Shown here: one piece after another, positions 8,225 to 43,989 of the stretch
Layout: the number at the start of each line of letters is the position of its first letter
Position numbering within the stretch: the stretch's first letter is position 1
Assembly (NCBI GenBank): GCA_965230935.1
Contig: OZ246400.1
Coordinates: 173,705 to 237,704, forward strand
Length of the DNA: 64,000 bases
Direction: 5' to 3'
DNA from: an uncultured Gammaproteobacteria bacterium
GTDB taxonomy: Bacteria; Patescibacteriota; Patescibacteriia; Magasanikbacterales; JBBTQS01
Notes under the pieces: model-generated
What the model was told of the DNA's origin: nothing
The model's input: the letters and a program-made list of their open reading frames with translations, nothing else
Database searches by the model: none
Translations under genes and position numbers: made by a program

Positions 8225-8246
8225 CATTGTTGTTTGACAAATTTGT

Positions 8247-8372: not shown

Positions 8373-8447
8373 TCCGGGGTAGCTCAGTGGTAGAGCAGTT
8401 GGCTGTTAACCAATTGGCCGCGGGTTCGAGTCCCGCCCCCGGAGCCA
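8373..8447 (+). tRNA. tRNA-Asn (anticodon GTT)
   Basis: Cloverleaf readable by hand: acceptor tccgggg/ccccgga, D-arm tagctcagtggtagagca, anticodon loop ctGTTaa, T-arm gcgggttcgagtcccgc, encoded CCA. Confidence 0.9.
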
Positions 8448-14228: not shown

Positions 14229-14381
14229 TGGTTTCCTCCATAGTACTTCCCCAACGCATCAGGGAAATACGCAGTTGGCTTCTCACCGTACGACACTAGT
14301 CAGTTATCTGTCTTCTCCCTAACGCATCAGGAAAAATCAAGAACTGAGGGAACCGCGCCCCTACCGCTTGGCAAGACAAAA

Positions 14382-14409
14382 AGTATAGCAAAATTACTCC
14401 TTTTGTCAA
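14382..14409 (-). promoter_or_regulatory. sigma70-like promoter for gene D (minus strand: TTGACA-16-TATACT)
   Basis: Minus-strand reading ctaTTGACAaaaggagtaattttgcTATACTttt. About 145-nt leader to ATG 14228. Confidence 0.6.
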
Positions 14410-14487
14410 TAGTTTTCACAAGAAAGTTCTTTGTATTTCAGAAAATATGGTAGACTGCAGACAGTAATTTCAGCCAAATATTAGGAT

Positions 14488-17479: not shown

Positions 17480-17508
17480 GCAATCTCCCACTCATCAACA
17501 ATGGGAGA

Positions 17509-18576: not shown

Positions 18577-18608
18577 CTTTAGCCATCACACAACACACAC
18601 AACATGAA

Positions 18609-18637
18609 GAACGCGCAAACAAGCGCGCTCTTTGTAT
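18609..18637 (+). terminator. hairpin terminator after gene A
   Basis: gaacgcgc-aaacaa-gcgcgctc stem followed by tttgtattct. Confidence 0.65.
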
Positions 18638-18710
18638 TCTGGACAAAAGTAATTTGTTATAGTATGTATAAGATACCTGCATAAGAGATAGTGCAGGAAG
18701 AGGAGATCAG

Positions 18711-19478
18711 ATGTCACATGACGAATCGGCAGCGCCCCCGCAAGTGCCGATTGAGGAGGCCATTGTTGGGTTTTGCGCCCACATTGGATTGGTCGCCCGG
18801 AGTTCGTTTGGCGAGGAGTTGGTTGCTGCGGTGTGCCGAAAGGCCGTCTGCGCGATCGACATACAACCAGACTGGGATCAACGGGCAGTCTTTCGCGTAC
18901 CAGCAAAGCACGACCGTGTCTCGGGCGTGTTCGCAGTGATCTTGCTCGACGACGCGCTGAGCGAGTCGCTGACCAATGACTTCAATGAGCTTCTGCTGGG
19001 CTATGGCGGCTCAGGAGAAGGAGATGTTGATCACTGGAGTCAGACGACCAAGCTCACCCGCGCGGTTCGTGGGCTCAAGAGCTGGTTCAAGGACAGAGGC
19101 ATCCGTCTGGAGGTTGGGGATATCAACAGCTTTGTCACCGCCTGGGAAACTGGTGAGGTGAGAGAGTGGTCGTTTGATCAAGGTCGTGGAGCACCGGTGA
19201 TTGCGTTCGTCGTGCGTCCGTACGATGCCCCCAGAGACGAACGACGAAACAGTGAAGTTTGCGTCGAGGTGCACTGGGGTGACAGGCTCAACCACGAGTT
19301 GACTGCTGGTCTGAACCAGATGATCGACGATGCGTTGGGCCCCGATCTTCACTGGGACGTTCGGCGAACCACGGATGAGGACGCGTCTACGTCTGCCCAT
19401 TTTGCTGCACAGGAGGTGGCAGCCATCGGGGGGCAACAGCGGGAGCAACCGCGCCGTCGCAGCGCTGTGGGCGAGTAA
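18711..19478 (+). CDS. hypothetical protein, high-GC cassette gene B
   Basis: 255-aa ORF. ATG preceded by GGAAGAGGAG SD. GC-rich codons. No domain recognised. Confidence 0.75.
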   Translation: MSHDESAAPPQVPIEEAIVGFCAHIGLVARSSFGEELVAAVCRKAVCAIDIQPDWDQRAVFRVPAKHDRVSGVFAVILLDDALSESLTNDFNELLLGYGGSGEGDVDHWSQTTKLTRAVRGLKSWFKDRGIRLEVGDINSFVTAWETGEVREWSFDQGRGAPVIAFVVRPYDAPRDERRNSEVCVEVHWGDRLNHELTAGLNQMIDDALGPDLHWDVRRTTDEDASTSAHFAAQEVAAIGGQQREQPRRRSAVGE

Positions 19479-19502
19479 CTCAACACAACACACAACACAG
19501 GG

Positions 19503-19529
19503 CCTCCGCTACAACTTAGTGGAGGTTTT
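19503..19529 (+). terminator. hairpin terminator after gene B
   Basis: cctccgcta-caact-tagtggagg 9-bp stem followed by TTTT. Confidence 0.7.
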
Positions 19530-19537
19530 GTAATATC

Positions 19538-19566
19538 TTGACAGGAAAGCTGTCGCATAGTATAGT
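19538..19566 (+). promoter_or_regulatory. consensus sigma70 promoter for gene C (TTGACA-17-TATAGT)
   Basis: cTTGACAggaaagctgtcgcatagTATAGTc. Confidence 0.7.
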
Positions 19567-19590
19567 CTCTTCTCTCCTCATTGCATTGCT

Positions 19591-20238
19591 TTGATTAACT
19601 ACCGGGGAGGGAAGGGGGCTAACACCTTGAGTGAAGATTGGCGCGGCTTTGTCGCGGCACGTGAGGAAGATCGCGTTGCTGCGCTTGGTGCCGCAATGTC
19701 TCATCTGATGCAGCGAGTGGGGTTCATTGACCCCAAATCGCCTGGGGACAAGAAGTCTCGGAAGGCGCTTGCACAGATGGGGTCGGCATTGGCTGCCATG
19801 ATCAGTGCCGCCCGTTCCGGTGACGTGTACATCACGGTGCTGCAGGGCGAGCAGACAGGTTCCGACGTGCTGATCCAGGTGTTGCCATTCGCCCCGACTA
19901 TGATCGGCGATGGCGACGATGCCGCGTTGGATCTGAGCATGCCGCGTCGCACTCGCGAGCGGCTGGTCATGGTCTACACTCTCTCGCCGAACGGCACTGA
20001 CCGTGGCTTCGAGTTCTCTCTGGATCTCACCACCAGCTTCAACACAGGTGTGCAGCAGGTCATCGACGTGCAGCACACATCACTCCTGCAACGAGGTTTG
20101 AGGCCCAGGGAGCGATCCGAGTCCCCCCCGGCACCAAATGGCTGGTTGACCTGGGAGGACTGGCTCGAGGAGTCGGCACGACGCGCCGAGCAGTCGGGGA
20201 CTGGAGGCGAGGAGGTCGAGGAGTCCTCAGGCTCCTGA
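19591..20238 (+). CDS. hypothetical protein, high-GC cassette gene C
   Basis: ORF from TTG 19591. More likely start is TTG 19627, 8 nt after the GGGGAGGGAAGGGGG SD-like run. GC-rich codons. No domain recognised. Confidence 0.7.
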   Translation: MINYRGGKGANTLSEDWRGFVAAREEDRVAALGAAMSHLMQRVGFIDPKSPGDKKSRKALAQMGSALAAMISAARSGDVYITVLQGEQTGSDVLIQVLPFAPTMIGDGDDAALDLSMPRRTRERLVMVYTLSPNGTDRGFEFSLDLTTSFNTGVQQVIDVQHTSLLQRGLRPRERSESPPAPNGWLTWEDWLEESARRAEQSGTGGEEVEESSGS

Positions 20239-20272
20239 TCACTCACAACAACAACCACACCACAACGGCAGG

Positions 20273-20297
20273 CCCGGCGTATACGCGACGGGTTTTC
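20273..20297 (+). terminator. hairpin terminator after gene C
   Basis: cccggcgtatacgcgacggg (contains the 10-nt palindrome gcgtatacgc) followed by TTTT. Confidence 0.6.
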
Positions 20298-20331
20298 CAA
20301 TTCTAAAGAGAAAATATGCTATGATGCCATT

Positions 20332-26881: not shown

Positions 26882-27277
26882 ATGCTTGCATTAACCAAAC
26901 AAGTAGATTACGCAATTCAGCTTATTGGCGGTTTAAAGGGTCTCAAAGAAAATGAGACTGTATCTTTGCGCACGTTTGCTTATGAGTCTAGCATTTCCTT
27001 CCCATTTCTTCAACGGATCGCTCGTCAATTAAAGCAAGCAGGAATTATTGTATCCCAAAAAGGCAAAGATGGGGGATATCGTTTGGCACGTGAGCCACGA
27101 TCAATCACGGTGCAAGATTTAGTTGACGCAATTGAAGGTAAGACCGGTATCGCCGCGTGTATTAGTAATCCAGGATCGTGTGGATTTGAAGATATGTGTA
27201 GTAGTAAAGATGTTATTGAAGTACTTAATTTTGAAATTTCAGAGTTATTGCGCAGCGTAACTGCGGCCGACTTTTAA
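26882..27277 (+). CDS. Rrf2-family transcriptional regulator (IscR-like)
   Basis: N-terminal wHTH (TKQVDYAIQLIG..., VSLRTFAYESSISFPFLQRIARQLKQAGIIVSQKGKDGGYRLAR) and a C-terminal Cys cluster (CISNPGSCGFEDMC). Confidence 0.88.
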   Translation: MLALTKQVDYAIQLIGGLKGLKENETVSLRTFAYESSISFPFLQRIARQLKQAGIIVSQKGKDGGYRLAREPRSITVQDLVDAIEGKTGIAACISNPGSCGFEDMCSSKDVIEVLNFEISELLRSVTAADF

Positions 27278-27280
27278 TCT

Positions 27281-28591
27281 ATGTTAGGAACTATAATCCC
27301 AAAAGAGCAGCGCAAGGAGGTGTACCTTGATCATGCTGCAGCCACACCAATGGCTGAGGAAGTTATCGACGCAATGCAGCCGTACTTTACTCAACACTAT
27401 GGCAATCCCGGAGGGTTATATCGTAAAGGTCGTGAGGCTATGCAAGCGATTTCTGCCGCACGTGCGAAAGTGGCAAAACTATTTTGTACACAACCAGAGC
27501 AAATTTTGTTTGTAGGAAGTGGTACGGAAAGTGATAACTTGGCAATCTTTGGTATTGCGCGAGCGTATTCAGCACAGGGGAAACATATTGTGTCGAGTGC
27601 AATTGAGCATCATGCCGTACTGCATCCACTTAAGCAACTTAAAAAAGAGGGGTATGAAATAAATAACGCGGTTGTCGGTGTTGACGGGCAGATAACCCCT
27701 GAGGCAGTAATTGAGCAATTACGCGAAGATACCATTCTTGTCTCTGTTATGTACGCCAATAATGAGATCGGTACTATCAATCCCATTGCTGGTATTGGCC
27801 GTGCGATCTTGAAATGGAAAAAAGAACATGGACGCAAACCTACTGATGCTCCTTTTTTTCACACCGATGCATGTCAGGCATCAGGAGCATTGGAACTTTC
27901 TGTCGAAAAACTCCATGTTGATTTGATGACCATCAACGGTTCAAAGATCTATGGGCCAAAGGGGGTGGGAGTATTATATGCACGACGAGGGGTTCGATTG
28001 CAAAAAATGATCTACGGAGGTACTCAGGAGTTTCGCAAGCGTGCCGGGACGGAGAATGTAGCGAGTATTGTTGGTTTGGCGACTGCGCTTGAGTTCATGC
28101 AGCAGCACAAAACGTCAGAAAACACACGGTTGATTGGACTGCGGGATTGGTTTACTACCGAGGTGCTCAAGCGTATTCCCAAAACAGTCCTTAATGGACA
28201 CGCGATTGATCGTTTGCCAAATAACATTAATATTTCTTTCCTTGATATTGAAGGAGAGGCATTGATTTTGTATCTGGACGAGTACGGCATTAGTGTATCT
28301 ACTGGTAGTGCTTGCACGTCCGAGACACTTGATCCCTCTCATGTCATTGTCGGGATTGGGAAACCATATGAATATGCCCATAGCAGTATGCGCTTTACGC
28401 TTGGCAAAGACACCACACAAGAGGATCTTGAATATGTGCTTACTGTCCTTGAGCCAACAGTCAAATTTTTGCGTACGATCTCGCCAGTGAATGTATCCAT
28501 GGAAGCAGATAGTAAAGACGTCACACTCCAGTCTGCATTTGTGGACGATGGCGTGCCACATTTTGTTAAAAAACAACAACGTAATACATAG
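27281..28591 (+). CDS. cysteine desulfurase (NifS/IscS family)
   Basis: Class-V aminotransferase; PLP-Lys region (TINGSKIYGPKGVG) and SGSACTS active-site Cys loop. Confidence 0.92.
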   Translation: MLGTIIPKEQRKEVYLDHAAATPMAEEVIDAMQPYFTQHYGNPGGLYRKGREAMQAISAARAKVAKLFCTQPEQILFVGSGTESDNLAIFGIARAYSAQGKHIVSSAIEHHAVLHPLKQLKKEGYEINNAVVGVDGQITPEAVIEQLREDTILVSVMYANNEIGTINPIAGIGRAILKWKKEHGRKPTDAPFFHTDACQASGALELSVEKLHVDLMTINGSKIYGPKGVGVLYARRGVRLQKMIYGGTQEFRKRAGTENVASIVGLATALEFMQQHKTSENTRLIGLRDWFTTEVLKRIPKTVLNGHAIDRLPNNINISFLDIEGEALILYLDEYGISVSTGSACTSETLDPSHVIVGIGKPYEYAHSSMRFTLGKDTTQEDLEYVLTVLEPTVKFLRTISPVNVSMEADSKDVTLQSAFVDDGVPHFVKKQQRNT

Positions 28592-28592
28592 T

Positions 28593-29276
28593 ATGAATAG
28601 CAAACCAAAACCAATGCAGCCAACAGCAAAGGCCGGTGCTGATGTGGTAAACGAACATACCGGTCAGCAATGGGTGTACTCACCGATTGTAAAAGATCAC
28701 TTTTTCAATCCACGAAATCTTTTGCTGGATGAGCCAGATGATGCCAATTTTGATGCTCGCGGGACTGTGGGATCACCTGCCTGTGGGGATGTAATGGACA
28801 TTTGGTTAACCGTCGATCCGAAAACTGATTGCATTGCAGATCTAAAGTGGAAAACATTTGGGTGCGGCTCTGCTATTGCAGCAACCTCGATGTTCTCAGT
28901 AATGCTCACTGAAAATGGCGGTATGAAACTTGATGACGCACTCAATGTTCGACCACAAGATATTATGGTGCGCTTGGGTGGGTTGCCGAATCGCAAAATC
29001 CATTGTTCAGTTTTAGCTGATAAAGCATTTCATAAGGCAGTAAACAACTATTTTCGAAATTCAGGACAGACAGATCGTATTGTGGTGGAAGGAAAGCGAG
29101 TTATTGATCCAGCAACGAACACTACGGACAAGGATATTGAAGAGGCGGTTCTTGAAGGTGCACAAAATCTTGAAGAGGTTCAAGAAAAACTTAAAGTGGC
29201 AATTGGTGCTGATCTCGGAGTTCGCGAGGATGTTGAAAAGTTAATCAGATTTTACTCAGAGAAATATTATGGCTAA
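28593..29276 (+). CDS. NifU/IscU-like Fe-S cluster scaffold protein
   Basis: Three conserved Cys (GSPACGD; FGCGSAIA; HCSVLA). ATG 28593 is immediately after the nifS stop; the track ORF starts earlier (28491) inside nifS. Confidence 0.88.
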   Translation: MNSKPKPMQPTAKAGADVVNEHTGQQWVYSPIVKDHFFNPRNLLLDEPDDANFDARGTVGSPACGDVMDIWLTVDPKTDCIADLKWKTFGCGSAIAATSMFSVMLTENGGMKLDDALNVRPQDIMVRLGGLPNRKIHCSVLADKAFHKAVNNYFRNSGQTDRIVVEGKRVIDPATNTTDKDIEEAVLEGAQNLEEVQEKLKVAIGADLGVREDVEKLIRFYSEKYYG

Positions 29277-29336
29277 TGTTGATTTTTCCTCTGGTTACCA
29301 GTATGCTGGTGGTGCAGATTTCTTAATATAAATAAT

Positions 29337-29639
29337 ATGGATACTCCTGAGACACCTTCAGCAAAATCACAAGATGAGTTTGAGTTTACTGCAGATGTGA
29401 AACCACGCAAAACCGGGAAGATACGGAAGATTGTTGTTGATCAAGACGGCTGCATTGGCGCGGGAAGTTGTGTTGCCGTAACTCCGGGCGTATTTCAATT
29501 GGATGATGAAGATAAAGCATATATCGTTGATCCAGAATCAGCAGATGACGACATGTTGCTGATGTCTGCACAAAGTTGTCCAGTATTGGCGATCCATTTA
29601 TACGATGAAGAGGGGAATAAAATTTTCCCAGAAGCCTAA
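29337..29639 (+). CDS. ferredoxin (single-cluster, CxxGxC...CP type)
   Basis: DQDGCIGAGSCVAVTP ... SCPVLAI pattern of mono-cluster ferredoxins. Confidence 0.7.
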   Translation: MDTPETPSAKSQDEFEFTADVKPRKTGKIRKIVVDQDGCIGAGSCVAVTPGVFQLDDEDKAYIVDPESADDDMLLMSAQSCPVLAIHLYDEEGNKIFPEA

Positions 29640-29641
29640 AT

Positions 29642-30313
29642 ATGCTTGGCACGCTTTTTGTTGTTGGCACACCGATTGGAAATTTATCAGATTGTAGTGC
29701 TCGCACGCTTGAAACACTCAAGCGTGTTTCATATATTTTGGCCGAAGATACGCGAGTAGCGAAAAAACTACTCACCCATTTTGCTATCTCCACACCAGCG
29801 AAGCGTCTTGATATGCACAGTAGTGCAAAAACATTTTCGCTAACACTTGCTGATTTGCAATCTGGTAAAGATGTTGCATTGATTAGTGACGCCGGCACGC
29901 CGACAATTGCTGATCCTGGGGCGCAATGTATTGCCTATGTGCTGCAACATGAACCCACACTTGTGGTGAGTCCAATTCCCGGACCAAGCGCACTCACTGC
30001 AGCACTCTCTGTTGCTGGTTTTCCAAGTAGTTCATTTACCTTCTATGGGTTTGCTCCGGCGAAAAAAGGTAGGCACAATTTTTTTAAACGAATCGCTAAT
30101 CGCGCTGAAGTTGTGGTTTTGTTTGAGTCGGTGCATCGCATTACCAAAACACTCCAAGAGCTTAAAGAGCACATCGGTGATCGCCCGGTAATAGTTGCGC
30201 GTGAATTGACGAAACAATTTGAAACAGTATATCGTGGAAGTATTGCAACGATTCTCGAAAATGGAATTGTTGAAAAAGGCGAGTTTGTCATTGTGGTTTC
30301 CCCGAAAAAATGA
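29642..30313 (+). CDS. rsmI: 16S rRNA (cytidine1402-2'-O)-methyltransferase
   Basis: Tetrapyrrole-methylase fold with the characteristic N-terminus (LFVVGTPIGNLSDCSARTLETLKRVSYILAEDTR). Confidence 0.85.
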   Translation: MLGTLFVVGTPIGNLSDCSARTLETLKRVSYILAEDTRVAKKLLTHFAISTPAKRLDMHSSAKTFSLTLADLQSGKDVALISDAGTPTIADPGAQCIAYVLQHEPTLVVSPIPGPSALTAALSVAGFPSSSFTFYGFAPAKKGRHNFFKRIANRAEVVVLFESVHRITKTLQELKEHIGDRPVIVARELTKQFETVYRGSIATILENGIVEKGEFVIVVSPKK

Positions 30314-30602
30314 CATCATTAGTTCTGATGGTTCTGAGAAAATAAAAACGAGGCTCCCCAAACGTAGTGCGTTCGCAGCGTACGCTGTAGAGGAGCCCCG
30401 CAACAGGTGCAGCCGACTTGGTCCCGCGGCCAAGCCAACGGTTTGCCTGAGCAGTCTCAGAAGCAGTGTCTTACAACACGGCCAGAGAACCGTCTGGTTC
30501 CGTCTGGTCCCATTCAGTTCCGAGGAGATATGTGGCCGGAGCGCACGCGCTCACTCCTCAAAAACTGCCCAAGTGGTGCAAGTATATTACTAAACCGTAT
30601 AT
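30314..30602. other. 290-bp GC-rich non-coding island (candidate structured RNA or decayed high-GC remnant)
   Basis: No credible ORF. Visibly GC-rich against AT-rich flanks. Tandem CCGTCTGGT x2 at 30492-30511 and several short palindromes (cgtacg, gcgcgc). Confidence 0.4.
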
Positions 30603-32135
30603 ATGTCAAGCAGAAAATCAAATTCTCGATTCTATATCACCACACCGATCTACTATATTAATGACCGTCCCCATATTGGGCATGCCTATACCACGATCAT
30701 TGCTGATGTGCTTGCACGTTATCACCGCATGTGCGGTAAAGAGGTGGTATTTGTAACCGGTACTGATGAGAACTCTCAAAAAAGTGTTGAAGCAGCGAAG
30801 AAGAGTGGTGTTGAAGCAGTGGGCACGTATATTGATGAAATGGCAGCTATTTGGGAGCAGACCTGGGATTCAATTGGTATTACCAACACAGATTTTATTC
30901 GCACCACACAACCACGACATATTGAAGGGGTTCGTGTGTTTTATGAGCACGTATTTGCCGCAGGGGATATTTACAAGGGTGAATACGTCGGTCTGTATTG
31001 TGTCGGGTGCGAAGCTTTTTATAAAGAAAGTGATCTAGACGAGCAAGGGCATTGTCCAGATCACAAGACTCCACCACAAAAACTTACTGAGGAAAATTGG
31101 TTTTTCAAACTTTCTGCATATCGCGAAAAATTACTGGCATACATCGAAGCAAACCCAGATTTTGTGCAGCCAGTTTCTCGTCGAAATGAGGTGGTCAACT
31201 ACATTACCCATCACATGGAGGACATCAGCATCTCTCGTCAGTCGCAAGAGTGGGGGATTCCGGTTCCAAATGACGAAACACAAGTACTGTATGTGTGGTT
31301 TGATGCATTGCTTAATTATATAACTGCACTTGGATATGGTGCTGATGATCGTGGTGCATTCGAAAATTTTTGGCCGGCTGATATCCAGTTGGTTGGGAAG
31401 GATATTTTGAAATTTCACTGTGCCTTGTGGCCGGCAATGCTTATGAGCGCAGGTGTTGCTCCACCAAAACAAGTATTTGCCCATGGATTTTTTACGATCA
31501 ATGGGCAAAAAATGAGCAAGACGCTTGGCAATGTGATTGATCCGGTTGAAATTGGTAACCAATATGGTTTGGATGCCTTGCGGTACTTCTTTATGCGTGA
31601 GATTAAATTTGGTGAGGATGGGGATTTTTCAACGGAGAAGTTGGCTAAGCGGTATCAAAAAGATCTTGGAGATGAGCTGGGCAATTTAGTTTCGCGTGTG
31701 GTGACCATGATGCACAAGTTCGCCGAAGGTGCTATTCCTAAAACTGATGACTCCAAACTATTTGACAGCGCGGCTCCTTGGAAAACTTATCAGCATACTA
31801 TTGAGAAGTTTGACTTTTTTAAAACCATAGAAGTTATTTGGGGGATTGTAGGTGAGGCAAATCGTTTGATTACTGATGAAAAACCGTGGGAGCTCGCCAA
31901 AACAAACAATCCTAAGCTCGGTGGTGTGTTATACTATCTCGCAGATGCGCTGTATCATATAGCATGGATGTTAACTCCGATCATGCCTGAGACTGCAGAT
32001 AAGATGTTGGCACAATTGGGTTGTGATGTTGCGCAAGAGCGTGCACGCGCATTGGCGGATGTGCAAACGTCCCATATTAGTACTGGACAGTCAGTTGGTG
32101 CGTCTGAAATTTTATTTCCTAAACATGAAACATAA
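30603..32135 (+). CDS. metG: methionyl-tRNA synthetase
   Basis: HIGH motif (PHIGHAYT), CxxC zinc knuckle (CVGCEAFY...HCPDH), KMSKT motif. Confidence 0.95.
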   Translation: MSSRKSNSRFYITTPIYYINDRPHIGHAYTTIIADVLARYHRMCGKEVVFVTGTDENSQKSVEAAKKSGVEAVGTYIDEMAAIWEQTWDSIGITNTDFIRTTQPRHIEGVRVFYEHVFAAGDIYKGEYVGLYCVGCEAFYKESDLDEQGHCPDHKTPPQKLTEENWFFKLSAYREKLLAYIEANPDFVQPVSRRNEVVNYITHHMEDISISRQSQEWGIPVPNDETQVLYVWFDALLNYITALGYGADDRGAFENFWPADIQLVGKDILKFHCALWPAMLMSAGVAPPKQVFAHGFFTINGQKMSKTLGNVIDPVEIGNQYGLDALRYFFMREIKFGEDGDFSTEKLAKRYQKDLGDELGNLVSRVVTMMHKFAEGAIPKTDDSKLFDSAAPWKTYQHTIEKFDFFKTIEVIWGIVGEANRLITDEKPWELAKTNNPKLGGVLYYLADALYHIAWMLTPIMPETADKMLAQLGCDVAQERARALADVQTSHISTGQSVGASEILFPKHET

Positions 32136-32142
32136 TTAACGT

Positions 32143-32676
32143 ATGTGGAAAGAAATTTTTAACCCCGATGTATTTTTGTTTGTAGTGCTTTTTGGGTTCA
32201 CCATGTTTGGTTGGTGGGTTGGAGTTATTCATGCGATTGGATCAGTGGTAGGAACGGTTGCCGGTGCATTTGTCGCAACGCACTACAATAATCAAATCAC
32301 TGATTGGGTGTTGTCGAAAATGGATTTTCCAGAAAGTACGGCACATGTGTTGGTATTCTTTATTACGTTTTTTATTGTGAACCGGTTGGTTGGGCTGGTG
32401 TTTTGGATGATCGATCGGTCAGTAAAATTTGCCCGGTTTATTCCGTTTCTTAAATCCATTAATCGCATGTTAGGTGCGATGTTTGGGTTTGTTGAAGGAG
32501 TATTGGTACTTGGTCTGGGGATTGCATACCTTTCCGCATTTCCATTTGGTGCAGGGCTGACTCAGTTTTTCGAGCATTCAACAGCAGCACCTTGGCTGGT
32601 CGATACGGCTGGTGTATTGTTCCCACTGCTGCCAGAGGCATGGGAAAAAGTGGAACACCTTTTTAAGGAGGTATAA
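32143..32676 (+). CDS. CvpA-family membrane protein
   Basis: 4-TM small protein with CvpA-like organisation. Confidence 0.65.
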   Translation: MWKEIFNPDVFLFVVLFGFTMFGWWVGVIHAIGSVVGTVAGAFVATHYNNQITDWVLSKMDFPESTAHVLVFFITFFIVNRLVGLVFWMIDRSVKFARFIPFLKSINRMLGAMFGFVEGVLVLGLGIAYLSAFPFGAGLTQFFEHSTAAPWLVDTAGVLFPLLPEAWEKVEHLFKEV

Positions 32677-32678
32677 CT

Positions 32679-33533
32679 ATGGAATTATTTGATACGCACT
32701 GTCATGTACATTTCAATGCCTATAAGGACGACATGCACGATGTCGTTTCTCGTTCTTTGGCCAAAGGAGTACAGATGGTGACAATTGGGACACAAAAAGA
32801 TACCAGCCGAGCTGGCGTAGAACTTGCCCGGCAGTATGATGGACTGTGGGCTGCAGTCGCGCTTCATCCTAACCACTTGTTTCCTGTGCACATTGATGAA
32901 GATGAGGTTCCGTTTATCACGCGTGAAGAAGATTTTGATTATACGTATTATAAAGAACTTGCCCAAGACCCAAATGTTGTAGCAATTGGGGAGTGTGGTC
33001 TTGATTGGTATCGGATTCCTGATGATCGGGATATCGAAGAAGTAAAAGCAAGGCAATTTCAAGTATTTGCTCAACATCTTGATTTGGCTACAGATGTGCG
33101 TTTGCCAGTAATTATTCATTGTCGTGATGCGCATGCTGAGTGTGCTGAAGTTTTGGAAAAATACATTGCTGAGGGCAAGCTAGATCGCAGAGGAATCATT
33201 CATTGTTTTACCGGAACACTTGATGAAGCGATGCGTTATATTGATCTTGGATTTGTGATTTCTATTCCGGGGATTATTACCTTTCCTCCTAAAAAAGGAG
33301 ATGGACTCACGCCACTACAAGAAGTGGTAAAACAAATTCCACTTGAGCATATGGTTATTGAAACCGATGCTCCATACCTCACACCAGTACCATATCGTGG
33401 TAAGCGCAATGAACCGTGGTATGTGCAGTTTGTTGCACAAACCATTGCTGAGTTAAAAGGCATTTCTACTGAAGAGGTCGCCCGTACCACGACACAAACA
33501 GCAAAAAAATTATTTGACCTTATCAAGATATGA
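32679..33533 (+). CDS. TatD-family metal-dependent DNase/hydrolase
   Basis: LFDTHCHV N-terminal motif, GECGLD, HCR/HCF motifs. Confidence 0.9.
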   Translation: MELFDTHCHVHFNAYKDDMHDVVSRSLAKGVQMVTIGTQKDTSRAGVELARQYDGLWAAVALHPNHLFPVHIDEDEVPFITREEDFDYTYYKELAQDPNVVAIGECGLDWYRIPDDRDIEEVKARQFQVFAQHLDLATDVRLPVIIHCRDAHAECAEVLEKYIAEGKLDRRGIIHCFTGTLDEAMRYIDLGFVISIPGIITFPPKKGDGLTPLQEVVKQIPLEHMVIETDAPYLTPVPYRGKRNEPWYVQFVAQTIAELKGISTEEVARTTTQTAKKLFDLIKI

Positions 33534-34315
33534 ACATCATGGAACAAAAGATTCAGGACATTGCCCGTGAAGCCGGAAAGATCACCATGCAATATTTTCG
33601 AAAAGCTGATTTGCAGCAAAAGGGAAAAACAAGTAAGTCAGATATTGTTACCGAAGCGGATTTAGCGGCTGATGCATATGTGAAGCAGGAAATTCAAAAG
33701 TATTTTCCTGAGCATGGCATTATCTCCGAAGAGCTTGATGACTATCAAACTGATGCTGAATATGTATGGACCATTGATCCGGTTGATGGTACGCGAAATT
33801 TTGCAAGTGGGTTTCCGTTGTTTGCAGTAATGCTTGCTACTGTGCGCAACGGCGAAGTAATACTCAGTGCTGTGTACCAACCTTTTTTTGACGTGATGTA
33901 CTTTGCGAAAAAAGGGGAGGGGGCGTTTAAAAACGGAAAGAATATCACTTGTTCGACAACTGATGAGCATTCTTTTGCCTACGGATGTCTTGGCACCAAC
34001 CTCAATCAACCGGAGATTGCATCCGCATGGAAAAAATTGATCAACCAAGACGACCGCGATGGTCTATGGGTAAATGCTCTTGGGTGTGCTGGGTTTGTTC
34101 AACCGATGACTGCTGATGGCACTCGTGATTGGGTATATCAGGTTGCAGGCGGTATTTGGGATGTGGCTCCCGGCTATTTACTCCTAAAAGAGGCAGGCTG
34201 TACTGTCACCCATGTTGATGGCACACCATGGAAGTTTGCCCAAGGAGTAAAAGACATTTTGGCTGCCAATCCAAAGCTTCATCCACAGATTGTTCACATT
34301 TTGGCTAAATCTTAA
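33530..34315 (+). CDS. inositol monophosphatase family protein
   Basis: WTIDPVDGT metal-binding motif and C-terminal WDVAPG motif. Confidence 0.88.
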   Translation: MNIMEQKIQDIAREAGKITMQYFRKADLQQKGKTSKSDIVTEADLAADAYVKQEIQKYFPEHGIISEELDDYQTDAEYVWTIDPVDGTRNFASGFPLFAVMLATVRNGEVILSAVYQPFFDVMYFAKKGEGAFKNGKNITCSTTDEHSFAYGCLGTNLNQPEIASAWKKLINQDDRDGLWVNALGCAGFVQPMTADGTRDWVYQVAGGIWDVAPGYLLLKEAGCTVTHVDGTPWKFAQGVKDILAANPKLHPQIVHILAKS

Positions 34316-34359
34316 GGATTTGTGATGCTTGGGATTTGTTGTTCAAAATCAAAACTTTC

Positions 34360-34388
34360 TTGACAAAAAAGTAGAATTTGGCTACAAT
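34360..34388 (+). promoter_or_regulatory. consensus sigma70 promoter of the atp operon (TTGACA-17-TACAAT)
   Basis: tcTTGACAaaaaagtagaatttggcTACAATac. Confidence 0.75.
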
Positions 34389-34689
34389 ACAGCCGTTCTA
34401 TTTTCTTTTTTTAAAGCCTGTGGATAACGAATTACCTAAAACTGGTAAAAAATCTTCAGGAATCGGTGCTAACTATACCAGGTTTGCTCTACGAATTGTT
34501 GCAGATTTTGGAGCTACTATTGCTGTCCCAGTTGTGCTTTTTGCCTGGATCGGTAAGCGTCTAGACACCAAATATGATACTGCACCTTGGTTGTTGATCA
34601 CTGGTTTTGTGCTTGCAGCAGTTATCTCGGTATTGAGTATCAGAAAAAAAGCAAAAAAACTCGGTAAAGAATTTGAGAAGATGAATTAA
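34378..34689 (+). CDS. AtpZ/AtpI-like small membrane protein (ATP synthase protein I family)
   Basis: Two TM helices (RFALRIVADFGATIAVPVVLFAWIGKRLD...PWLLITGFVLAAVISVL) immediately upstream of atpB. The track ORF begins at a TTG inside the -10 box; the real start is probably a downstream non-ATG codon (e.g. GTG 34420). Confidence 0.6.
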   Translation: MATIQPFYFLFLKPVDNELPKTGKKSSGIGANYTRFALRIVADFGATIAVPVVLFAWIGKRLDTKYDTAPWLLITGFVLAAVISVLSIRKKAKKLGKEFEKMN

Positions 34690-34696
34690 GTTACGT

Positions 34697-35494
34697 ATGG
34701 AAATACCACTTGCTGCAGAAGCAATTTTCCACATTGGCTCATGGCCAGTGACCAACTCCATGATTAATGCATGGATCGCAGTGGTGTTTTTTGTACTTAT
34801 TGGTCTGGCGGTTCGCAACAAAAAAGCAGCGGTCCCGCGAGGAATCCAAAACGTGATGGAAGCAATAGTCGAGTTTATGACTGACTTTATTGTAAAACTC
34901 GTAGGAGATCGAAAGCGTGCTGAACAATTTTTGCCAATTGTAGGCACGTTGTTTTTATTTATCCTCATAAGTAACTGGATGGGGCTTATTCCTGGCACCG
35001 GAACCATCGGCATTTGGGAAATGCATCATGGTAAGATCGTATTGGTTCCATTTTTGCGTCCTGCTGGATCAGATCTCAACATGACGCTTGCTATGGCACT
35101 GTTGGCAGTGACGGTCTCTCATTTTGCCGGGATTGTTGCTATTGGATTTTTCAAACACCTCAACAAATTTGTACAGCTTGGTTCAGTATTTAAAAGCATT
35201 ACCAAAGGACCATTGGCAATCTTTGTAGCGCTCATCGAATTTGTGGTTGGACTTATTGAGATCGTCAGTGAAGTTGCTAAAGTGGTTTCACTCTCTTTGC
35301 GTTTGTTTGGAAACATCTTCGCCGGAGAAGTGCTGCTTACCGTGATGATTGGCTTGATTGCCTATGGTGTTCCAATTCCGTTTATGTTTATGGAGTTGAT
35401 TGTGGGATTTGTACAAGCGTTGGTGTTTGCTGGTTTAGTCTTGGTGTATTTAATGGTCGCGGTTTCAGAACCGCACGAACAAGAAGCCCATTAG
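34697..35494 (+). CDS. atpB: F0F1 ATP synthase subunit a
   Basis: Conserved subunit-a essential Arg region (SLSLRLFGNIFAGE). Confidence 0.95.
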   Translation: MEIPLAAEAIFHIGSWPVTNSMINAWIAVVFFVLIGLAVRNKKAAVPRGIQNVMEAIVEFMTDFIVKLVGDRKRAEQFLPIVGTLFLFILISNWMGLIPGTGTIGIWEMHHGKIVLVPFLRPAGSDLNMTLAMALLAVTVSHFAGIVAIGFFKHLNKFVQLGSVFKSITKGPLAIFVALIEFVVGLIEIVSEVAKVVSLSLRLFGNIFAGEVLLTVMIGLIAYGVPIPFMFMELIVGFVQALVFAGLVLVYLMVAVSEPHEQEAH

Positions 35495-35607
35495 TGAGTT
35501 GTGGTTGGTCTTGGCCTAAGGGAGCAAGACCAACCGTAATTCATTAAGCGTAGTATTCGGAGGTTAAAAATCCAAGTTCCCCTCCAGAAGAACCGCAGGA
35601 GAATTTT

Positions 35608-35826
35608 ATGGACGCAGAAATGATGCGTTTGCTCAGCAAGGCACTGGTAATGGCCATCGGTGGTTTTGCACCAGCACTTGCGATCGGTAAGCTTGTTGCA
35701 AAAGCCATGGAGGCTATTGGTCGCAACCCAGAGGCCGCAGGTAAAGTGTTTGTTCCCATGCTTTTGGGCGCAGCGTTTGCTGAAGCGATCGCGATTTACG
35801 CACTGGTTATTGCATTTACCCTGTAA
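35608..35826 (+). CDS. atpE: F0F1 ATP synthase subunit c
   Basis: 72-aa hairpin proteolipid with conserved carboxylate ([15 protein letters not shown]). Confidence 0.93.
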
Positions 35827-35876
35827 TTAAACCGTTCTTGTGGTGCGCGTGCGCACCACAGATAACCGTTTGAATT

Positions 35877-36440
35877 ATGATTGATATTGTCCATGCCGCA
35901 GAGATTGCCAAAGACGCTGCACATGCAGTGGAGGCAACCGCAAGTGCAAACCCGATTGGAACATTTGGGTTAAATCTTAAGTTGTTTATTGCCCAGTTGG
36001 TCAACTTTGCAATTGTGTTGTTGGTGTTGTGGAAATGGGTATACAAACCATTGCTTAAGATTTTACGAGAGCGAACTGATACCATTGAAAAATCACTTGC
36101 CGATGCAAAACAAATTGAACAAGATCGTCTTGCAGCAGATGAAACAACGGCGGCACAGATTAAACAAGCTAAAGAAGAGGCGCGTGCAATCATTGCGCAA
36201 TCTGCAGAAAAAGCAGAGGCACTTGCGCTTGCAGGTAAGGAAAAAGCAACACAAGAAGTGGAGCAATTGGTGGCACAAGCGAAAGCGCAAATCGCAAGTG
36301 AGCGCACAGCAATGAAAGAAGAGTTAAAAGCTGAGACGATGACGCTGGCGGTAGCGGTAGCGCAAAAGATTTTGCAGGAGAAGATTGACACTAAGGCAGA
36401 CGCGACGCTAATTGCTAAAGCAGTTGATTCAGTGAAATAA
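35877..36440 (+). CDS. atpF: F0F1 ATP synthase subunit b
   Basis: N-terminal TM helix followed by a long charged coiled coil. Position between atpE and atpH. Confidence 0.85.
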   Translation: MIDIVHAAEIAKDAAHAVEATASANPIGTFGLNLKLFIAQLVNFAIVLLVLWKWVYKPLLKILRERTDTIEKSLADAKQIEQDRLAADETTAAQIKQAKEEARAIIAQSAEKAEALALAGKEKATQEVEQLVAQAKAQIASERTAMKEELKAETMTLAVAVAQKILQEKIDTKADATLIAKAVDSVK

Positions 36441-36441
36441 T

Positions 36442-36825
36442 ATGCGCATGACACCGCAACAACTAGGACAGGGATTGTACGAGTTGCTCGCTGATTTGCC
36501 GCGCAACAAGCAGGAGGGAATAATTACTGCGTTTGCAGCGTGGTTGAAGAAACAAGGAAAACTCCATTGGGGAAAATCAATCGCCCGAGCTGTGCAGCAG
36601 TATGGAGATGTTCAAGAGACCAAACAGCGTGTTGAAGCAACGGTGGCGCGTGAGATGCCTGAGCGAGAAGCGGCAGAATTAAAAGTTGCGCTTGAGAAAG
36701 CACTTAGTGCAAAAGAAGTTCGTCTGCATGTTGATGAGCAACTCATCGGCGGAGCAGTTATTCAAAAAGGATTCACCATAATCGATGCAAGTGTAAAAGG
36801 ACAATTGAATCGCCTGCATTCATAA
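36442..36825 (+). CDS. atpH: F0F1 ATP synthase subunit delta (OSCP)
   Basis: Short (127 aa) delta subunit with the C-terminal [12 protein letters not shown] pattern. Position between atpF and atpA. Confidence 0.8.
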
Positions 36826-36836
36826 TCTATACGTAT

Positions 36837-38330
36837 ATGTCAACAAAACAGATTGTAGAATCATTACAAAAACACATTGAGCAGTTTGATACCAATGTTG
36901 AAGTCGCCCAAGTCGGCACTGTTATTGAGGTAGGTGATGGAATTGCGCGCATGAGCGGACTTACCGAGTGTGGGGCAATGGAGATGCTCGAGTTTACTGA
37001 TGGTACGACCGGTGTAGCGCTGAACCTTGAGGAGGAAACTGTTGGGGCGATTATCCTAGGTGAGTACACCGGTATTACCGAAGGTTCGACCGTGAAACGA
37101 ACCGGTAAGATTTTGTCCGTGCCAGTCGGTGAACAAATGCTTGGTCGCGTGGTGAGTCCGTTAGGTGAGGCCAAAGATGGTAAGGGAGAGATTAAAAGCA
37201 AGCAACAATATCCAATTGAGAAGATTGCTCCTGGCGTGATGAAGCGTGAGCCGGTTGATACTCCGGTGCAAACTGGTATTAAGGCAATTGACTCCATGAT
37301 TCCAATTGGTCGTGGGCAACGTGAGTTGATTATTGGAGATCGTCAAACTGGTAAAACCGCTATCGCAGTCGACACGATTATTAACCAAGCCAAGGGAGAC
37401 ATGATCTGTATTTACGTAGCGATTGGTCAGAAAGAATCAAAAGTTGCTCGTATTGTAAATAAACTTGAAGAAGCAGGCGCCATGGATAACACTATCGTAG
37501 TGGTAGCTGGTGCATCAGATCCTGCAGCACTTTCCTTTATTGCACCATACTCCGGGTGTGCCATGGGAGAGTATTTTATGGATCAAGGAAAAGATGTTTT
37601 GGTTGTATATGATGATTTGACCAAACAAGCTTGGGCATATCGTGAGGTTTCACTATTGCTCCGTCGTCCGCCAGGGCGTGAGGCATATCCTGGTGATGTA
37701 TTTTATTTGCACTCTCGTTTGCTTGAGCGCGCCGCGAAGATGAGTAAAGAGCATGGTGGAGGATCACTCACCGCACTACCGATCATCGAAACCCAAGGTG
37801 GTGATGTGTCAGCATATATTCCAACAAACGTGATCTCAATTACTGATGGGCAAATTTACCTCGAGTCCGATCTGTTTTATCGTGGTATTCGCCCAGCACT
37901 TAATGTAGGATTATCTGTGTCTCGTGTTGGTTCAGCAGCACAGATTAAGGCGATGAAAAAAGTCGCCGGACCGCTTCGACTTAACTTGGCGCAGTTTCGA
38001 GAGCTTGAAGCGTTTGCCCAGTTTGCTACTGACTTGGATGACGCTACTCGTCAGCAGATTGAACGAGGAAAGCGTATGGTAGAGATGCTCAAACAGCCAC
38101 AATACGAACCAATGGACGTAGCAAACCAGGTTGCCATTATCTATGCGATTACCAATGGATTTTTGGATGAGGTTGACGTTGATAAAGTTGCGGAGTGGGA
38201 ATCAGCACTTCACGCATACTTTGCTCAGCAAGAAGCTGATTTACTTGCTGAAATTGTAACTGGGGATTGGAAAGAAGTTGAACCAAAATTGAAGAGCGCG
38301 ATTGAAGAGTTTGTGCAATCACAGCAATAA
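36837..38330 (+). CDS. atpA: F0F1 ATP synthase subunit alpha
   Basis: Walker A ([11 protein letters not shown]) and alpha-subunit signature regions. Confidence 0.97.
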
Positions 38331-41337: not shown

Positions 41338-43989
41338 ATGAATCGAATAGCTATTACCCTTGCCTTTGCCGCCCTGATCGCAGGGTGTGCAGACGCATCG
41401 GTAGATCCAGGAACGGTCGAGTGTTTCGGCGAGGCCTGTGCCAAGCCGGACGCCGATACGACCGGTGGTGGGGAGGTAGTCCCTCCGGATACCACACCGG
41501 ATGTCGGCGACACCGGTGATGACAGTGATGATCCGGATGTGCTCGAGACCGACGACGGTGCTGAGGTGGACGACATCAATGACGCCGATACGGCCGTCGA
41601 GGATGTGGACATCGACGTTCCGGACGAGGGTGATGATGGCGACACGCCGGATGTGCCCGAGACCAACGACGGTGCTGAGGTGGACGACACCGAGGACACC
41701 GACGAGACGACGGACACGGACGAGACCGATACGCCTGTTGATCCCTGCGATGGGGTCGACTGCACGGACGACAACCCGTGCACCATCGACGAGACGTGCG
41801 TGGATGGCGAGTGTGTCAGCTCGCCGGTCGTCTGCAACGATGACAATCCGTGTACGGACGATGCGTGCGTCGTGATTGAAGGTGGGTGCGTGTATACCCC
41901 GAACGCAGTGCTGTGTGAGGATGGCGACCCGTGTACGCTGGAGGACGCCTGTGTGGACGGTTCCTGTGCGCCTGGCGCACCGAAGATCTGCCAGGATGCC
42001 AACTTCTGCACCGTGGATGCGTGCGACCCGGTTTCCGGGGAGTGTGCCTTCGTGGTCGTGCCCGAGCCCTGCGATGATGGGAACGAGTGTACGCAGGAGG
42101 AGGTGTGTCAGCAGGACGCCACGTGTGGCAACGGGGCGGAAGTGGAGTGCGCAGACGAAGATCCGTGCACGAACGACAGCTGCAATCCGGACTCGGGTTG
42201 TGTGTTTGCTCAGAAGGAGTGCGACGACGAAGATCCGTGCACCGTTGACTTGTGCGAGACCGAGTCTGGCGAGTGTACCTTCGTGATCGTGCCGGAGTGC
42301 AAATGCGCTCCTGAGCAGTGTACGGACGACAACCCGTGCACGTCGGACGTGTGCAACCCGCTCGACGGGTCCTGCTCCTTCCCGTTCAACACGGAGCCGT
42401 GTGACGATGGCGACCCGTGTACGTTGGAGGACGCCTGTGCGGACGGTTCCTGTGCGCCTGGCGCGCCCAAGTCGTGTATCAGTGAGAACATCTGCCTGAG
42501 CGCGAGCTGCAATCCGGAGACGGGGAGCTGTGAGCTGAGTGAGAACACCGCGCCGTGTGACGATGGCGATGCGTGCACCCAGGAAGATGTGTGTAACGAA
42601 GGTTCGTGCGCTGGCGTGCTGATGGTGTGTACGGACGACAACCCGTGCACCGAAGGCGACACGTGCAATGGCGGCACTTGCGCCGCCGGGGAAGCCAAGG
42701 TCTGCGAAGACGGTAACCCCTGCACGGTTGGTGCGTGCGACCCGGATTCCGGGGAGTGCGCGTTTTCCCCGGACAACGGGGGAAGCTGCACGGACGACAA
42801 CCCGTGCACCAACGACGTCTGCCAGGACGGGGAGTGTGTGAGCGAGGCCAACAGCGCCTGCTGCACTGAAGACGCGCAGTGCGCTGACGAGCTGGCCTGT
42901 ACGCAGGACCAGTGCGTGGAGCAGTTGTGTAAGAACTTCGTCATTCCGGGCACCGGGCATTGCCTTATCGAGGAGGTGTGTATTCCGGAAGGGGTGGTCA
43001 ATTCGGCCAACGACTGTGAGGCTTGCACCTCGATGGTCAACCCCAACGGGTGGAGCCCGCTTGTGGATGGGAGCGATTGCGAAGATGGACAGGCGTGCAC
43101 CGAAGGCGACACGTGCAATGGCGGCACTTGCGCCGCCGGGGAAGCCAAGGTCTGCGAAGACGGTAACCCCTGCACGGTTGGTGCGTGCGACCCGGATTCC
43201 GGGGAGTGCGCGTTTTCCCCGGACAACGGGGGAAGCTGCACGGACGACAACCCGTGCACCAACGACGTCTGCCAGGACGGGGAGTGTGTGAGTACCACAG
43301 TCGCGTGCGACGACGGTCTCCCATGCACTCTGGATTCGTGTGACGAGGCGGGCGAGTGTCAGTACGAGCCCAAGACGTGTGACGACTCCAATCCGTGCAC
43401 CATCGATTCGTGCGAGCAGAGCACCGGCGATTGCGTAGGTGAGCTTGCTACGGTGAAGTTCCAGGACATCACCGCGGCCAAGTGCCTCACGCTTCCGCCG
43501 TTCATGCCATGGTTCGCGTTTGATGACTTCGATGACTCGGAGTCGCCCAATTCGAACATCTGGCACTGCGGTCACGACTGCCTGAACATCGACGCGGCCT
43601 GCCAGTCGCAAGTCGGTACGATCCGTCCCGGGTTTACGCACAACGGGGACCAGCACACCTTTACCATCGACCCGCAAGCAGCGTTTCCGGAACTTGACGG
43701 CATGACCATCTCGGCCGCCTTCACGTTCCGCAGGCAAGGGGTAACGCCCAACGACCTGACGCCGCCTGAGGTTGTGGTGAAGCAGACCATCGACGGAATC
43801 GAAACGGTGCTTGCCTCGCAGTTCCTGGGCAAATCACCGAACAACAATTTCGATTTCCTGGTCGAGTTCCTGGTTGGTGATGGTTTGGTCACGGTGTACT
43901 ACACGCCCAACGACTTCATCCCCGACTCGGAACGCACGCTGCACATCATGCTCGACTCGAACATCGAGCTGCAGCCTGTGTGTCCCTGA
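41338..43989 (+). CDS. large Cys-rich tandem-repeat lipoprotein (CxDDNPCTxDxC repeats, slime-mold/Dicty-CTDC-like)
   Basis: Lipoprotein signal (MNRIAITLAFAALIAGC), acidic D/E/T-rich linker, then roughly 20-25 repeats of about 22-25 aa with 4 Cys each (e.g. CTDDNPCTIDETCVDGECV). C-terminal roughly 170-aa Cys-poor domain. GC-rich codons. High-GC cassette gene E. Confidence 0.85.
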   Translation: MNRIAITLAFAALIAGCADASVDPGTVECFGEACAKPDADTTGGGEVVPPDTTPDVGDTGDDSDDPDVLETDDGAEVDDINDADTAVEDVDIDVPDEGDDGDTPDVPETNDGAEVDDTEDTDETTDTDETDTPVDPCDGVDCTDDNPCTIDETCVDGECVSSPVVCNDDNPCTDDACVVIEGGCVYTPNAVLCEDGDPCTLEDACVDGSCAPGAPKICQDANFCTVDACDPVSGECAFVVVPEPCDDGNECTQEEVCQQDATCGNGAEVECADEDPCTNDSCNPDSGCVFAQKECDDEDPCTVDLCETESGECTFVIVPECKCAPEQCTDDNPCTSDVCNPLDGSCSFPFNTEPCDDGDPCTLEDACADGSCAPGAPKSCISENICLSASCNPETGSCELSENTAPCDDGDACTQEDVCNEGSCAGVLMVCTDDNPCTEGDTCNGGTCAAGEAKVCEDGNPCTVGACDPDSGECAFSPDNGGSCTDDNPCTNDVCQDGECVSEANSACCTEDAQCADELACTQDQCVEQLCKNFVIPGTGHCLIEEVCIPEGVVNSANDCEACTSMVNPNGWSPLVDGSDCEDGQACTEGDTCNGGTCAAGEAKVCEDGNPCTVGACDPDSGECAFSPDNGGSCTDDNPCTNDVCQDGECVSTTVACDDGLPCTLDSCDEAGECQYEPKTCDDSNPCTIDSCEQSTGDCVGELATVKFQDITAAKCLTLPPFMPWFAFDDFDDSESPNSNIWHCGHDCLNIDAACQSQVGTIRPGFTHNGDQHTFTIDPQAAFPELDGMTISAAFTFRRQGVTPNDLTPPEVVVKQTIDGIETVLASQFLGKSPNNNFDFLVEFLVGDGLVTVYYTPNDFIPDSERTLHIMLDSNIELQPVCP
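42644..42842 (+). repeat. 199-bp perfect direct repeat, copy 1 (inside Cys-rich lipoprotein gene)
   Basis: Identical base-for-base to 43094-43292. Encodes CTEGDTCNGGTCAAGEAKVCEDGNPCTVGACDPDSGECAFSPDNGGSCTDDNPCTNDVCQDGECVS. Confidence 0.95.
43094..43292 (+). repeat. 199-bp perfect direct repeat, copy 2
   Basis: Identical to 42644-42842. The 450-nt offset is exactly 150 codons, so recombination between copies would be in-frame. Confidence 0.95.

Follow-up and report, generated by a model that had tools for sequence, protein, structure and literature searches.

What does the long gap between rsmI and metG hold, in a neighbourhood where the spacers are otherwise a few nucleotides long? The gap lies in a 64-kb stretch of DNA, called the window below. 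A sequence-only reading of the window had described a 290-bp GC-rich non-coding island at this place, and had offered three identities for it: a structured sRNA, a cis-regulatory leader of metG, or the decayed remnant of a high-GC cassette. Judged from its transcription signals, the gap likely contains a stand-alone sRNA gene, which is read on the strand opposite to both neighbours.

The gap and its neighbourhood

The gap is bounded by two genes on the plus strand.

29642–30313, plus strand: rsmI-like ORF with a TP_methylase domain, RsmI-like
30314–30602: the rsmI–metG gap, 289 nt
30603–32135, plus strand: metG-like ORF for a methionyl-tRNA synthetase (MetRS) of 510 aa

Independent gene calls on the identical contig gave the same 289-nt gap. 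In these calls, the nearby spacers measured 2, 1, 60, 2, 7, 2, 5, 104, 7, 113, 50, 7 and 11 nt, and the gap was by far the largest spacer locally. The island described earlier is thus real and its length conspicuous. It is non-coding as well: no conserved ORF was found among the orthologous gaps, where the longest ORFs were 7–68 aa with unrelated sequences. Searches with tblastx between the gaps returned only multi-frame, both-strand matches, between the two closest sequences. Neither the 64-kb window nor any of the fetched loci contained a second copy of the element.

The GC-rich character of the gap was also borne out. In 100-nt windows, the G+C content was 0.58–0.65 across 30350–30550 versus 0.35–0.45 in the flanks, and that of the whole window was 0.45. 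At 0.615, the segment 30350–30549 was in the 95th percentile among all 200-nt windows of the stretch. Two large coding islands, at 17.5–20.3 kb and 41.3–44.0 kb, are richer than the gap core and reach a G+C content of 0.65–0.68, and no DNA similarity was found between the gap and the high-GC islands of the window.

These islands deserve a brief description of their own. The block at 17500–20300 (~2.8 kb, G+C 0.64–0.68 versus 0.45 in the window) holds three ORFs on the same strand, at 17509–18576 (355 aa), 18711–19478 (255 aa) and 19591–20238 (215 aa), some with acidic, low-complexity tails, and a near-consensus promoter at 19538. By appearance, the block is foreign DNA or DNA of unusual composition. 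The second island (41338–43989, G+C 0.65–0.68) is an 883-aa ORF for a Cys/Asp-rich protein with many 'DDNPCT...C' repeats and a lipoprotein-like N-terminus (MNRIAITLAFAALIAGC).

The order of the genes around the gap is kept, all in the same direction, in the window (26882–37000) and in the loci L038, L087, L090, L091 and L098: Rrf2, cysteine desulfurase, NifU, ferredoxin, rsmI, metG, cvpA, tatD, inositol monophosphatase and the ATP synthase operon. The rsmI-metG-tatD part is reminiscent of the yabC-metS-yabD region of Bacillus subtilis.

Transcription signals on the minus strand

The signals of a transcription unit were found on the minus strand of the gap.

30604–30609, minus strand: −35 hexamer TTGACA, overlapping the T and G of the metG ATG (30603–30605)
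30581–30586, minus strand: −10 hexamer TATACT, from a consensus scan
30339–30574, minus strand: predicted sRNA of ~236 nt, with ends deduced from the promoter and the terminator
30348–30401, minus strand: intrinsic terminator hairpin, a 12-bp GC-rich stem GCGGGGCUCCUC / GGGGAGCCUCGU with a structured tip
30339–30347, minus strand: U-tract UUUUAUUUU after the terminator hairpin, 26–34 nt from the rsmI stop codon (30311–30313)

The two hexamers form TTGACA-17-TATACT (30609–30581), with a 17-nt spacer and an 11/12 match to the sigma-70 consensus. Only 6 sites with a match of at least 11/12 exist in the 128 kb of the window (both strands), and the sRNA promoter is one of them. Another, TTGACA-16-TACAAT at 8234, lies ~100 nt upstream of tRNA-Asn (8373–8447). 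Two further sites that were checked are both intergenic, and at least one is directly upstream of an ORF. Since one site precedes the tRNA-Asn gene and the others checked are intergenic, this type of promoter is in use here, and sites of such quality are rare. The position of the site at 8234 implies a long 5′ leader for tRNA-Asn, and the surrounding gap is 344 nt. An 11/12 promoter is also present on the minus strand (−35 at 14409) in a 259-nt gap between divergent genes at 14229–14487.

RNA polymerase would start at this near-consensus sigma-70 promoter, with its −35 box on the metG start codon, and transcription would head away from metG through the GC-rich body and end at the intrinsic terminator by the rsmI stop codon. 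The 5′ end was placed at the A at 30574, 7 nt downstream of the −10 hexamer, and the 3′ end inside the U-tract. Because the terminator abuts the rsmI stop, the predicted transcript does not enter rsmI. On the plus strand the same hairpin has an A-tract before it and GCAACAGG after it, so it is not a plus-strand terminator.

The start region of metG itself is poor in signals. Neither a Shine-Dalgarno sequence nor a plus-strand promoter with a −35 box was found in the gap of any lineage, including L088, L090, L091, L093, L096 and L098. There are only TAnnnT-like hexamers, 7–13 nt upstream of the metG ATG (30560–30605 in the window, and in the relatives). This suggests that the metG mRNA is leaderless or has a very short leader, or that it depends on read-through from rsmI.

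The element matches no known RNA family. At gathering thresholds, Rfam 15 (4227 families) found nothing in the whole window but tRNA-Asn, and ARAGORN likewise reported only tRNA-Asn and no tmRNA in the window. In E-value mode (E ≤ 10), Rfam 15 gave only noise for the gap and six relatives. Neither Rfam nor ARAGORN produced a match to SRP RNA, RNase P RNA, tmRNA or 5S rRNA, and the conserved motifs typical of these RNAs were not seen by eye in the sequences. The first inspection by eye had matched the gap to none of SRP RNA, tmRNA, RNase P RNA, T-box and SAM-I, and the Rfam search agrees. The T-box model (RF00230) had no match at E ≤ 10 in the window and five relatives. SAM-I and the other riboswitches were rejected too: they had no Rfam match, and downstream on the minus strand there is only the antisense of rsmI.

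The element among relatives

The organism belongs to the candidate phyla radiation (CPR). The best matches of its MetRS in species genomes were Uhrbacteria, Berkelbacteria and unclassified MAGs (48–59% identity), and its closest relatives in a large protein collection were only 60–68% identical. The same type of promoter was found at the same place in six CPR lineages with MetRS 62–68% identical to that of the window. In L088, L090, L091, L093, L096 and L098, TTGAC[A/T]-17-TAnnnT stands on the minus strand 0–6 nt from the metG ATG. The gap was 194–311 nt in L090, L091/L092, L093, L096 and L098/L100, after correction of two mis-called metG starts. A minus-strand hairpin with a U-tract at or overlapping the rsmI stop codon was present in all five contigs that reach the far end (L090, L091, L093, L096 and L098). 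On the plus strand, the hairpins of these loci, like that of the window, have no U-tract after them. The G+C content was 49–54% for the gaps of the relatives and 51–58% for the RNA bodies, and the background, where measured, was 45% in the window and 43% in L098. These data support the structured sRNA among the identities proposed earlier, with conserved signals on the strand opposite to rsmI and metG. The lack of an Rfam hit and the lack of conservation had both been named as grounds for doubt; Rfam indeed gave no hit, but position and architecture were conserved.

The contigs L088 and L089 stop ~70 nt upstream of metG, with the promoter TTGACA-17-TATACT present. In fact, three independent assemblies end 70–95 nt upstream of metG (L086 1–95, L088 1–67 and L089 1–75). 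For L088 and L089 the break falls within the RNA gene, and the last bases of L089 are a poly-G run; no promoter of the sRNA type was found at the contig end of L086. Assembly or sequencing may be difficult through this folded, GC-rich stretch. Gene calls are affected in L090, L098 and L100. A spurious 60-aa ORF is called inside the RNA gene of L090 (3734–3916), where the metG call is probably over-extended by 14 codons. The metG call of L098 (3744–5369) is stretched to 541 aa through the RNA gene, and that of L100 (2986) is truncated.

Other relatives have no such element. In L087/L101–L103, rsmI overlaps metG by 19 nt and there is no gap; in the Uhrbacteria L001/L039, the two genes abut. Loci at a greater distance contain other genes or lack anything of this kind. 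The gap of L094 (3625–4000, the same as L095 526–901) is 376 nt long, AT-rich and unrelated, in a genome of 28% G+C; short TTTTCGTAATTTCGTA-like direct repeats occur in it, and it showed neither a promoter nor a terminator of the sRNA type. In a quick neighbour-joining tree of MetRS, computed without support values, L087 is nested among the RNA-bearing lineages. The simplest history is one gain in the ancestor of the clade, followed by loss in L087 and possibly in L086. Because the L087 lineage lost the gap, the RNA is dispensable there.

The predicted fold and its conservation

The whole gap, read on the minus strand, had a minimum free energy (MFE) of −109 kcal/mol (z = −3.4). The following elements were predicted upstream of the terminator.

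30569–30580, minus strand: 5′ arm of the closing helix P1, UGCACCACUUGG; only ACUUGG lies within the RNA if transcription starts at 30574
30515–30567, minus strand: long hairpin P2/Pb, with base CAGUU/AACUG, middle GAGGAG/CUCCUC and tip GAGCGCGUGCGCUC
30480–30510, minus strand: hairpin P3 from the 10-nt tandem repeat (GGACCAGACGGAACC AGAC GGUUCUCUGGCC)
30477–30483, minus strand: GGCCGUG motif, shared with at most one mismatch by the window, L090, L091, L093 and L096
30466–30479, minus strand: hairpin H2 (GUGUU GUAA GACAC), which begins inside GGCCGUG and covaries among orthologues
30425–30465, minus strand: hairpins P5 (30444–30465) and P6 (30425–30441), predicted from the single sequence, without comparative support
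30408–30421, minus strand: 3′ arm of P1, CCAAGUCGGCUGCA, just upstream of the terminator

Several of these elements had been noticed earlier as repeats. The perfect tandem CCGTCTGGT CCGTCTGGT reported at 30492–30511 is a repeat, though not a perfect one and with coordinates off by 2: it has two 10-nt units, CCGTCTGGTT at 30490–30499 and CCGTCTGGTC at 30500–30509, which are 9/10 identical. The short palindromes that were pointed out exist and are the tips of two hairpins, cgttcgcagcgtacgc (30370–30386) that of the terminator hairpin and GAGCGCACGCGCTC (30539–30552) that of P2. Direct sequence comparison showed that P2/Pb contains CCGGCCACAUAUCUCCUC, common to the window and L090.

Without their terminators, the cores of five loci were each set against 300 dinucleotide shuffles. 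The z-scores were as follows.

Window: minus strand −2.66, plus strand −2.06
L090: minus strand −2.46, plus strand −0.85
L091: minus strand −2.64, plus strand −2.53
L093: minus strand −1.52, plus strand −0.03
L096: minus strand −3.07, plus strand −2.54

The minus strand folded better in four of the five loci and was tied with the plus strand in L091. The plus-strand complement also beat its shuffles in three of the five (window, L091 and L096). In all five loci, the 5′ end of the RNA pairs with the segment directly before the terminator (combined z = −5.9, with the weakest signal in the window), and the arms of this closing helix are unrelated in sequence between lineages while their complementarity is kept.

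The primary sequence is almost unalignable except for GGCCGUG with its covarying hairpin and for the 3′ arm of the terminator, which is related across lineages (GGGGnUCUC-UUUUU). Searches of the gap with blastn and nhmmer against 37 and later ~100 loci, and against the rest of the window, gave nothing significant. Pairwise blastn among the orthologue cores returned marginal matches only, at the GGCCGUG region, and GGCCGUG was the sole internal motif of at least 7 nt common to the window, L090, L091, L093 and L096. In an alignment anchored by hand on this motif, the pairing of H2 was kept in 27/27 cells, with three pairs changed on both sides; 5 of 500 shuffles were as good. MAFFT with RNAalifold gave poor alignments, which recovered only H2. 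A covariance model built from L091/L092 with the MFE structure matched only itself, and the other loci were not above noise with filters on or off; the divergence within the family is too great for a model made from one sequence.

A Sankoff-type structural aligner found a plausible common layout for L090, L091, L093 and L096, in which a closing helix is joined by one short and one long hairpin and by a 3′ domain that includes the GGCCGUG hairpin. Against mirror-image controls, the four came out ahead in 6/6 pairs, although the same controls traced some of the signal simply to the 3′ terminator. The window RNA beat the controls weakly and L098 not at all, and the aligner was unstable for both. 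The RNA of L098 is 179 nt long and has neither the closing helix nor GGCCGUG; a long-range helix serves as its terminator stem, and it folds as two separate domains. As far as these models go, no single secondary structure fits all lineages, and the fold is plastic. The orthology of the RNA bodies rests on position, orientation and architecture. What the sequences show to be conserved is the transcription unit and the property of being a GC-rich RNA that folds.

Some further features were considered and rejected. C-rich loops resembling an anti-Shine-Dalgarno sequence are unpaired in L098, L091 and L090 and paired in the window, L093 and L096. A pseudoknot of the P2 loop (CGGCCA with UGGCCG) is perfect in the window and compensated in L091 (CGGUCC/GGACCG); it is not claimed because it is inconsistent across lineages, namely in L093 and L096, and GGCC is self-complementary. 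A 12-bp complementarity with one G-U links 30409–30420 of the sRNA (AAGUCGGCUGCA) to 27262–27273, which lies 8–19 nt upstream of the sufS-like start codon (27281). This match near the start occurs in the window only and is not conserved in L090, L091 and L098, and it is probably due to chance. No conserved target or partner was found among the neighbouring start regions.

Function of the element

In this study, we consider it fairly probable that the element is a stand-alone gene for a structured minus-strand sRNA of ~236 nt that acts in trans. We infer that the RNA is actually made, abundant and stable, and that it does the job itself through its structure, in trans, as a protein-binding or regulatory RNA. 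The trans action is proposed because the body is kept at 180–280 nt and 51–58% G+C, above the 45% and 43% of the background, where local spacers otherwise have a few nucleotides, because its paired regions change by compensatory substitution, and because GGCCGUG and its hairpin persist while the rest drifts. The gene evolves fast, has a shorter and different architecture in L098 and was lost in L087, so that it more likely encodes an accessory or regulatory RNA specific to the clade than a housekeeping RNA of universal occurrence. The plasticity of the fold likewise speaks for an accessory RNA particular to the lineage, and against a universal housekeeping ribonucleoprotein.

A bolder form of this proposal, which we regard as doubtful, is that the RNA is the first representative of a so far undescribed class of stable structured RNAs that is peculiar to this Patescibacteria lineage, and that it has a defined partner. 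It would, for example, scaffold or sequester a protein via the GGCCGUG hairpin, or make an RNA–RNA contact through the palindromic GGCC.

It is possible, though on the whole unlikely, that the main role of the element is in cis, where it would interfere with transcription or serve as an insulator, its RNA product being secondary. A strong promoter would then fire against the rsmI-to-metG direction, overlapping the metG start and any weak, leaderless-type promoter that metG may have, and would uncouple metG and the downstream genes from the upstream Rrf2/Fe-S operon or throttle them. It would do so through competition between promoters, through collision of polymerases or through base pairing between the sRNA and read-through mRNA. 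Where relatives lack the element, rsmI overlaps or abuts metG and the two form one operon, which means that the element interrupts an ancestral operon. The −35 box is fixed 0–6 nt from the metG ATG in seven lineages, and metG has no Shine-Dalgarno sequence or recognisable plus-strand −35 promoter but only TAnnnT-like hexamers. Moreover, the minus-strand terminator is not bidirectional, so that read-through on the plus strand would yield an RNA complementary to the sRNA over its full length. Divergent or overlapping promoters and cis-antisense of the 'excludon' type are similar in that a promoter overlaps the start of the neighbour on the other strand and the read-through mRNA is complementary. 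Unlike in those systems, the sRNA ends before any coding sequence, and its body is conserved as a structure, which is not required there. For interference, a promoter with an immediate terminator would suffice, and a streamlined genome is not expected to keep 180–280 nt of GC-rich compensating helices with an internal motif. The cis and trans readings are not mutually exclusive, and a role in cis, by which metG expression could be set, deserves to be taken seriously as an alternative or as an addition.

That the sRNA is the 6S-type RNA of the lineage, an abundant RNA binding the RNA polymerase holoenzyme by open-promoter mimicry, is very unlikely. It does resemble 6S RNA (ssrS; RF00013) in its size of ~180–240 nt, its own strong promoter with the strong expression that this predicts, its poor sequence conservation, its paired 5′ and 3′ ends and its dispensability, and duplexes forced between the 5′ and 3′ halves reach 75–88% of the MFE. 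However, there is no Rfam 6S match at E ≤ 10, and the predicted ensembles are multi-branched, with 3–5 hairpins on a junction instead of a rod with a central bubble. Only 48–71% of the MFE pairs lie on one spine; in what we take to be the E. coli 6S sequence, used for illustration only, 90% do. L098, with its two domains, has no closing stem. Our literature search found no papers that pair CPR or Patescibacteria with 6S RNA or RNase P RNA.

We consider it highly improbable that the element is without function, whether as a decaying, horizontally acquired high-GC gene or as a MITE-like insertion in which promoter- and terminator-like sequences arose by chance. Other high-GC islands do occur in the window, the element is missing from one nested lineage and from the outgroups, and its ends form an inverted repeat (P1). 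The element is single-copy in the window, bears no similarity to the GC-rich islands and has no remnant of a reading frame. The arms of the inverted repeat and of the hairpins differ in sequence between lineages with their complementarity kept. Promoter and terminator are intact at the same site and in the same orientation across lineages with 62–68% identical MetRS, in a region where the nearby spacers have a few nucleotides, and the decayed high-GC cassette suggested earlier is contradicted by these observations.

The least credible explanation, which was also among the earlier suggestions, is that the gap serves metG as a leader on the plus strand, be it a T-box, a riboswitch or an attenuator, or that it forms a structure for intercistronic processing of the rsmI-metG mRNA: the element is a structured region of 200–300 nt immediately upstream of an aminoacyl-tRNA synthetase gene, as T-box leaders are, and its plus strand beats shuffles in the window, L091 and L096, but the conserved promoter and terminator are on the wrong strand, no T-box or specifier, SAM or other cis-regulatory family was detected by Rfam in six lineages (E ≤ 10), no plus-strand hairpin with a U-tract, and no terminator or antiterminator, was found ahead of metG, where the last hairpin is followed by AAAAA, and the plus strand never folds better, with z near zero in L093 and, in our reading, in L090. 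In Bacillus subtilis, a T-box leader precedes metS within the syntenic rsmI-metS-tatD region.

The stand-alone sRNA gene is of a familiar kind. GC-IGR and DIMPL pipelines (Breaker lab) search for sRNA candidates of the 'long GC-rich intergenic region' type (PMC6429828, PMC8632094, PMC8723152, PMC11109978). Like those candidates, the element is non-coding and occupies an unusually long GC-rich intergenic region, with a promoter and an intrinsic terminator of its own; it outdoes its shuffles in folding, and its helices carry compensatory changes. Unlike them, the rsmI–metG RNA matches no described family, is so far confined to one small CPR clade, and varies in architecture. Neither metG nor rsmI is mentioned in the text of PMC11109978, and our search on structured or GC-rich intergenic RNAs found general motif-discovery papers only. 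We regard the element as a new candidate RNA family of narrow distribution, with the familiar layout of a bacterial sRNA gene within an intergenic region that is long and rich in G+C.

Public gene calls are already distorted because this RNA gene lacks annotation, as in L090 and L098. Should the cis reading be right, nature would here provide a clear case in which a promoter-terminator cassette that faces inward has split an operon. If the RNA were the founder of its own class, it would be a functional RNA retained in a 0.9-Mb genome stripped of most regulatory capacity. The genomes of CPR/Patescibacteria are tiny and tightly packed. A non-coding gene of 240 nt that deeply diverged lineages have kept at the same place gives one of the rare footholds for the study of RNA-based functions in these uncultured organisms.
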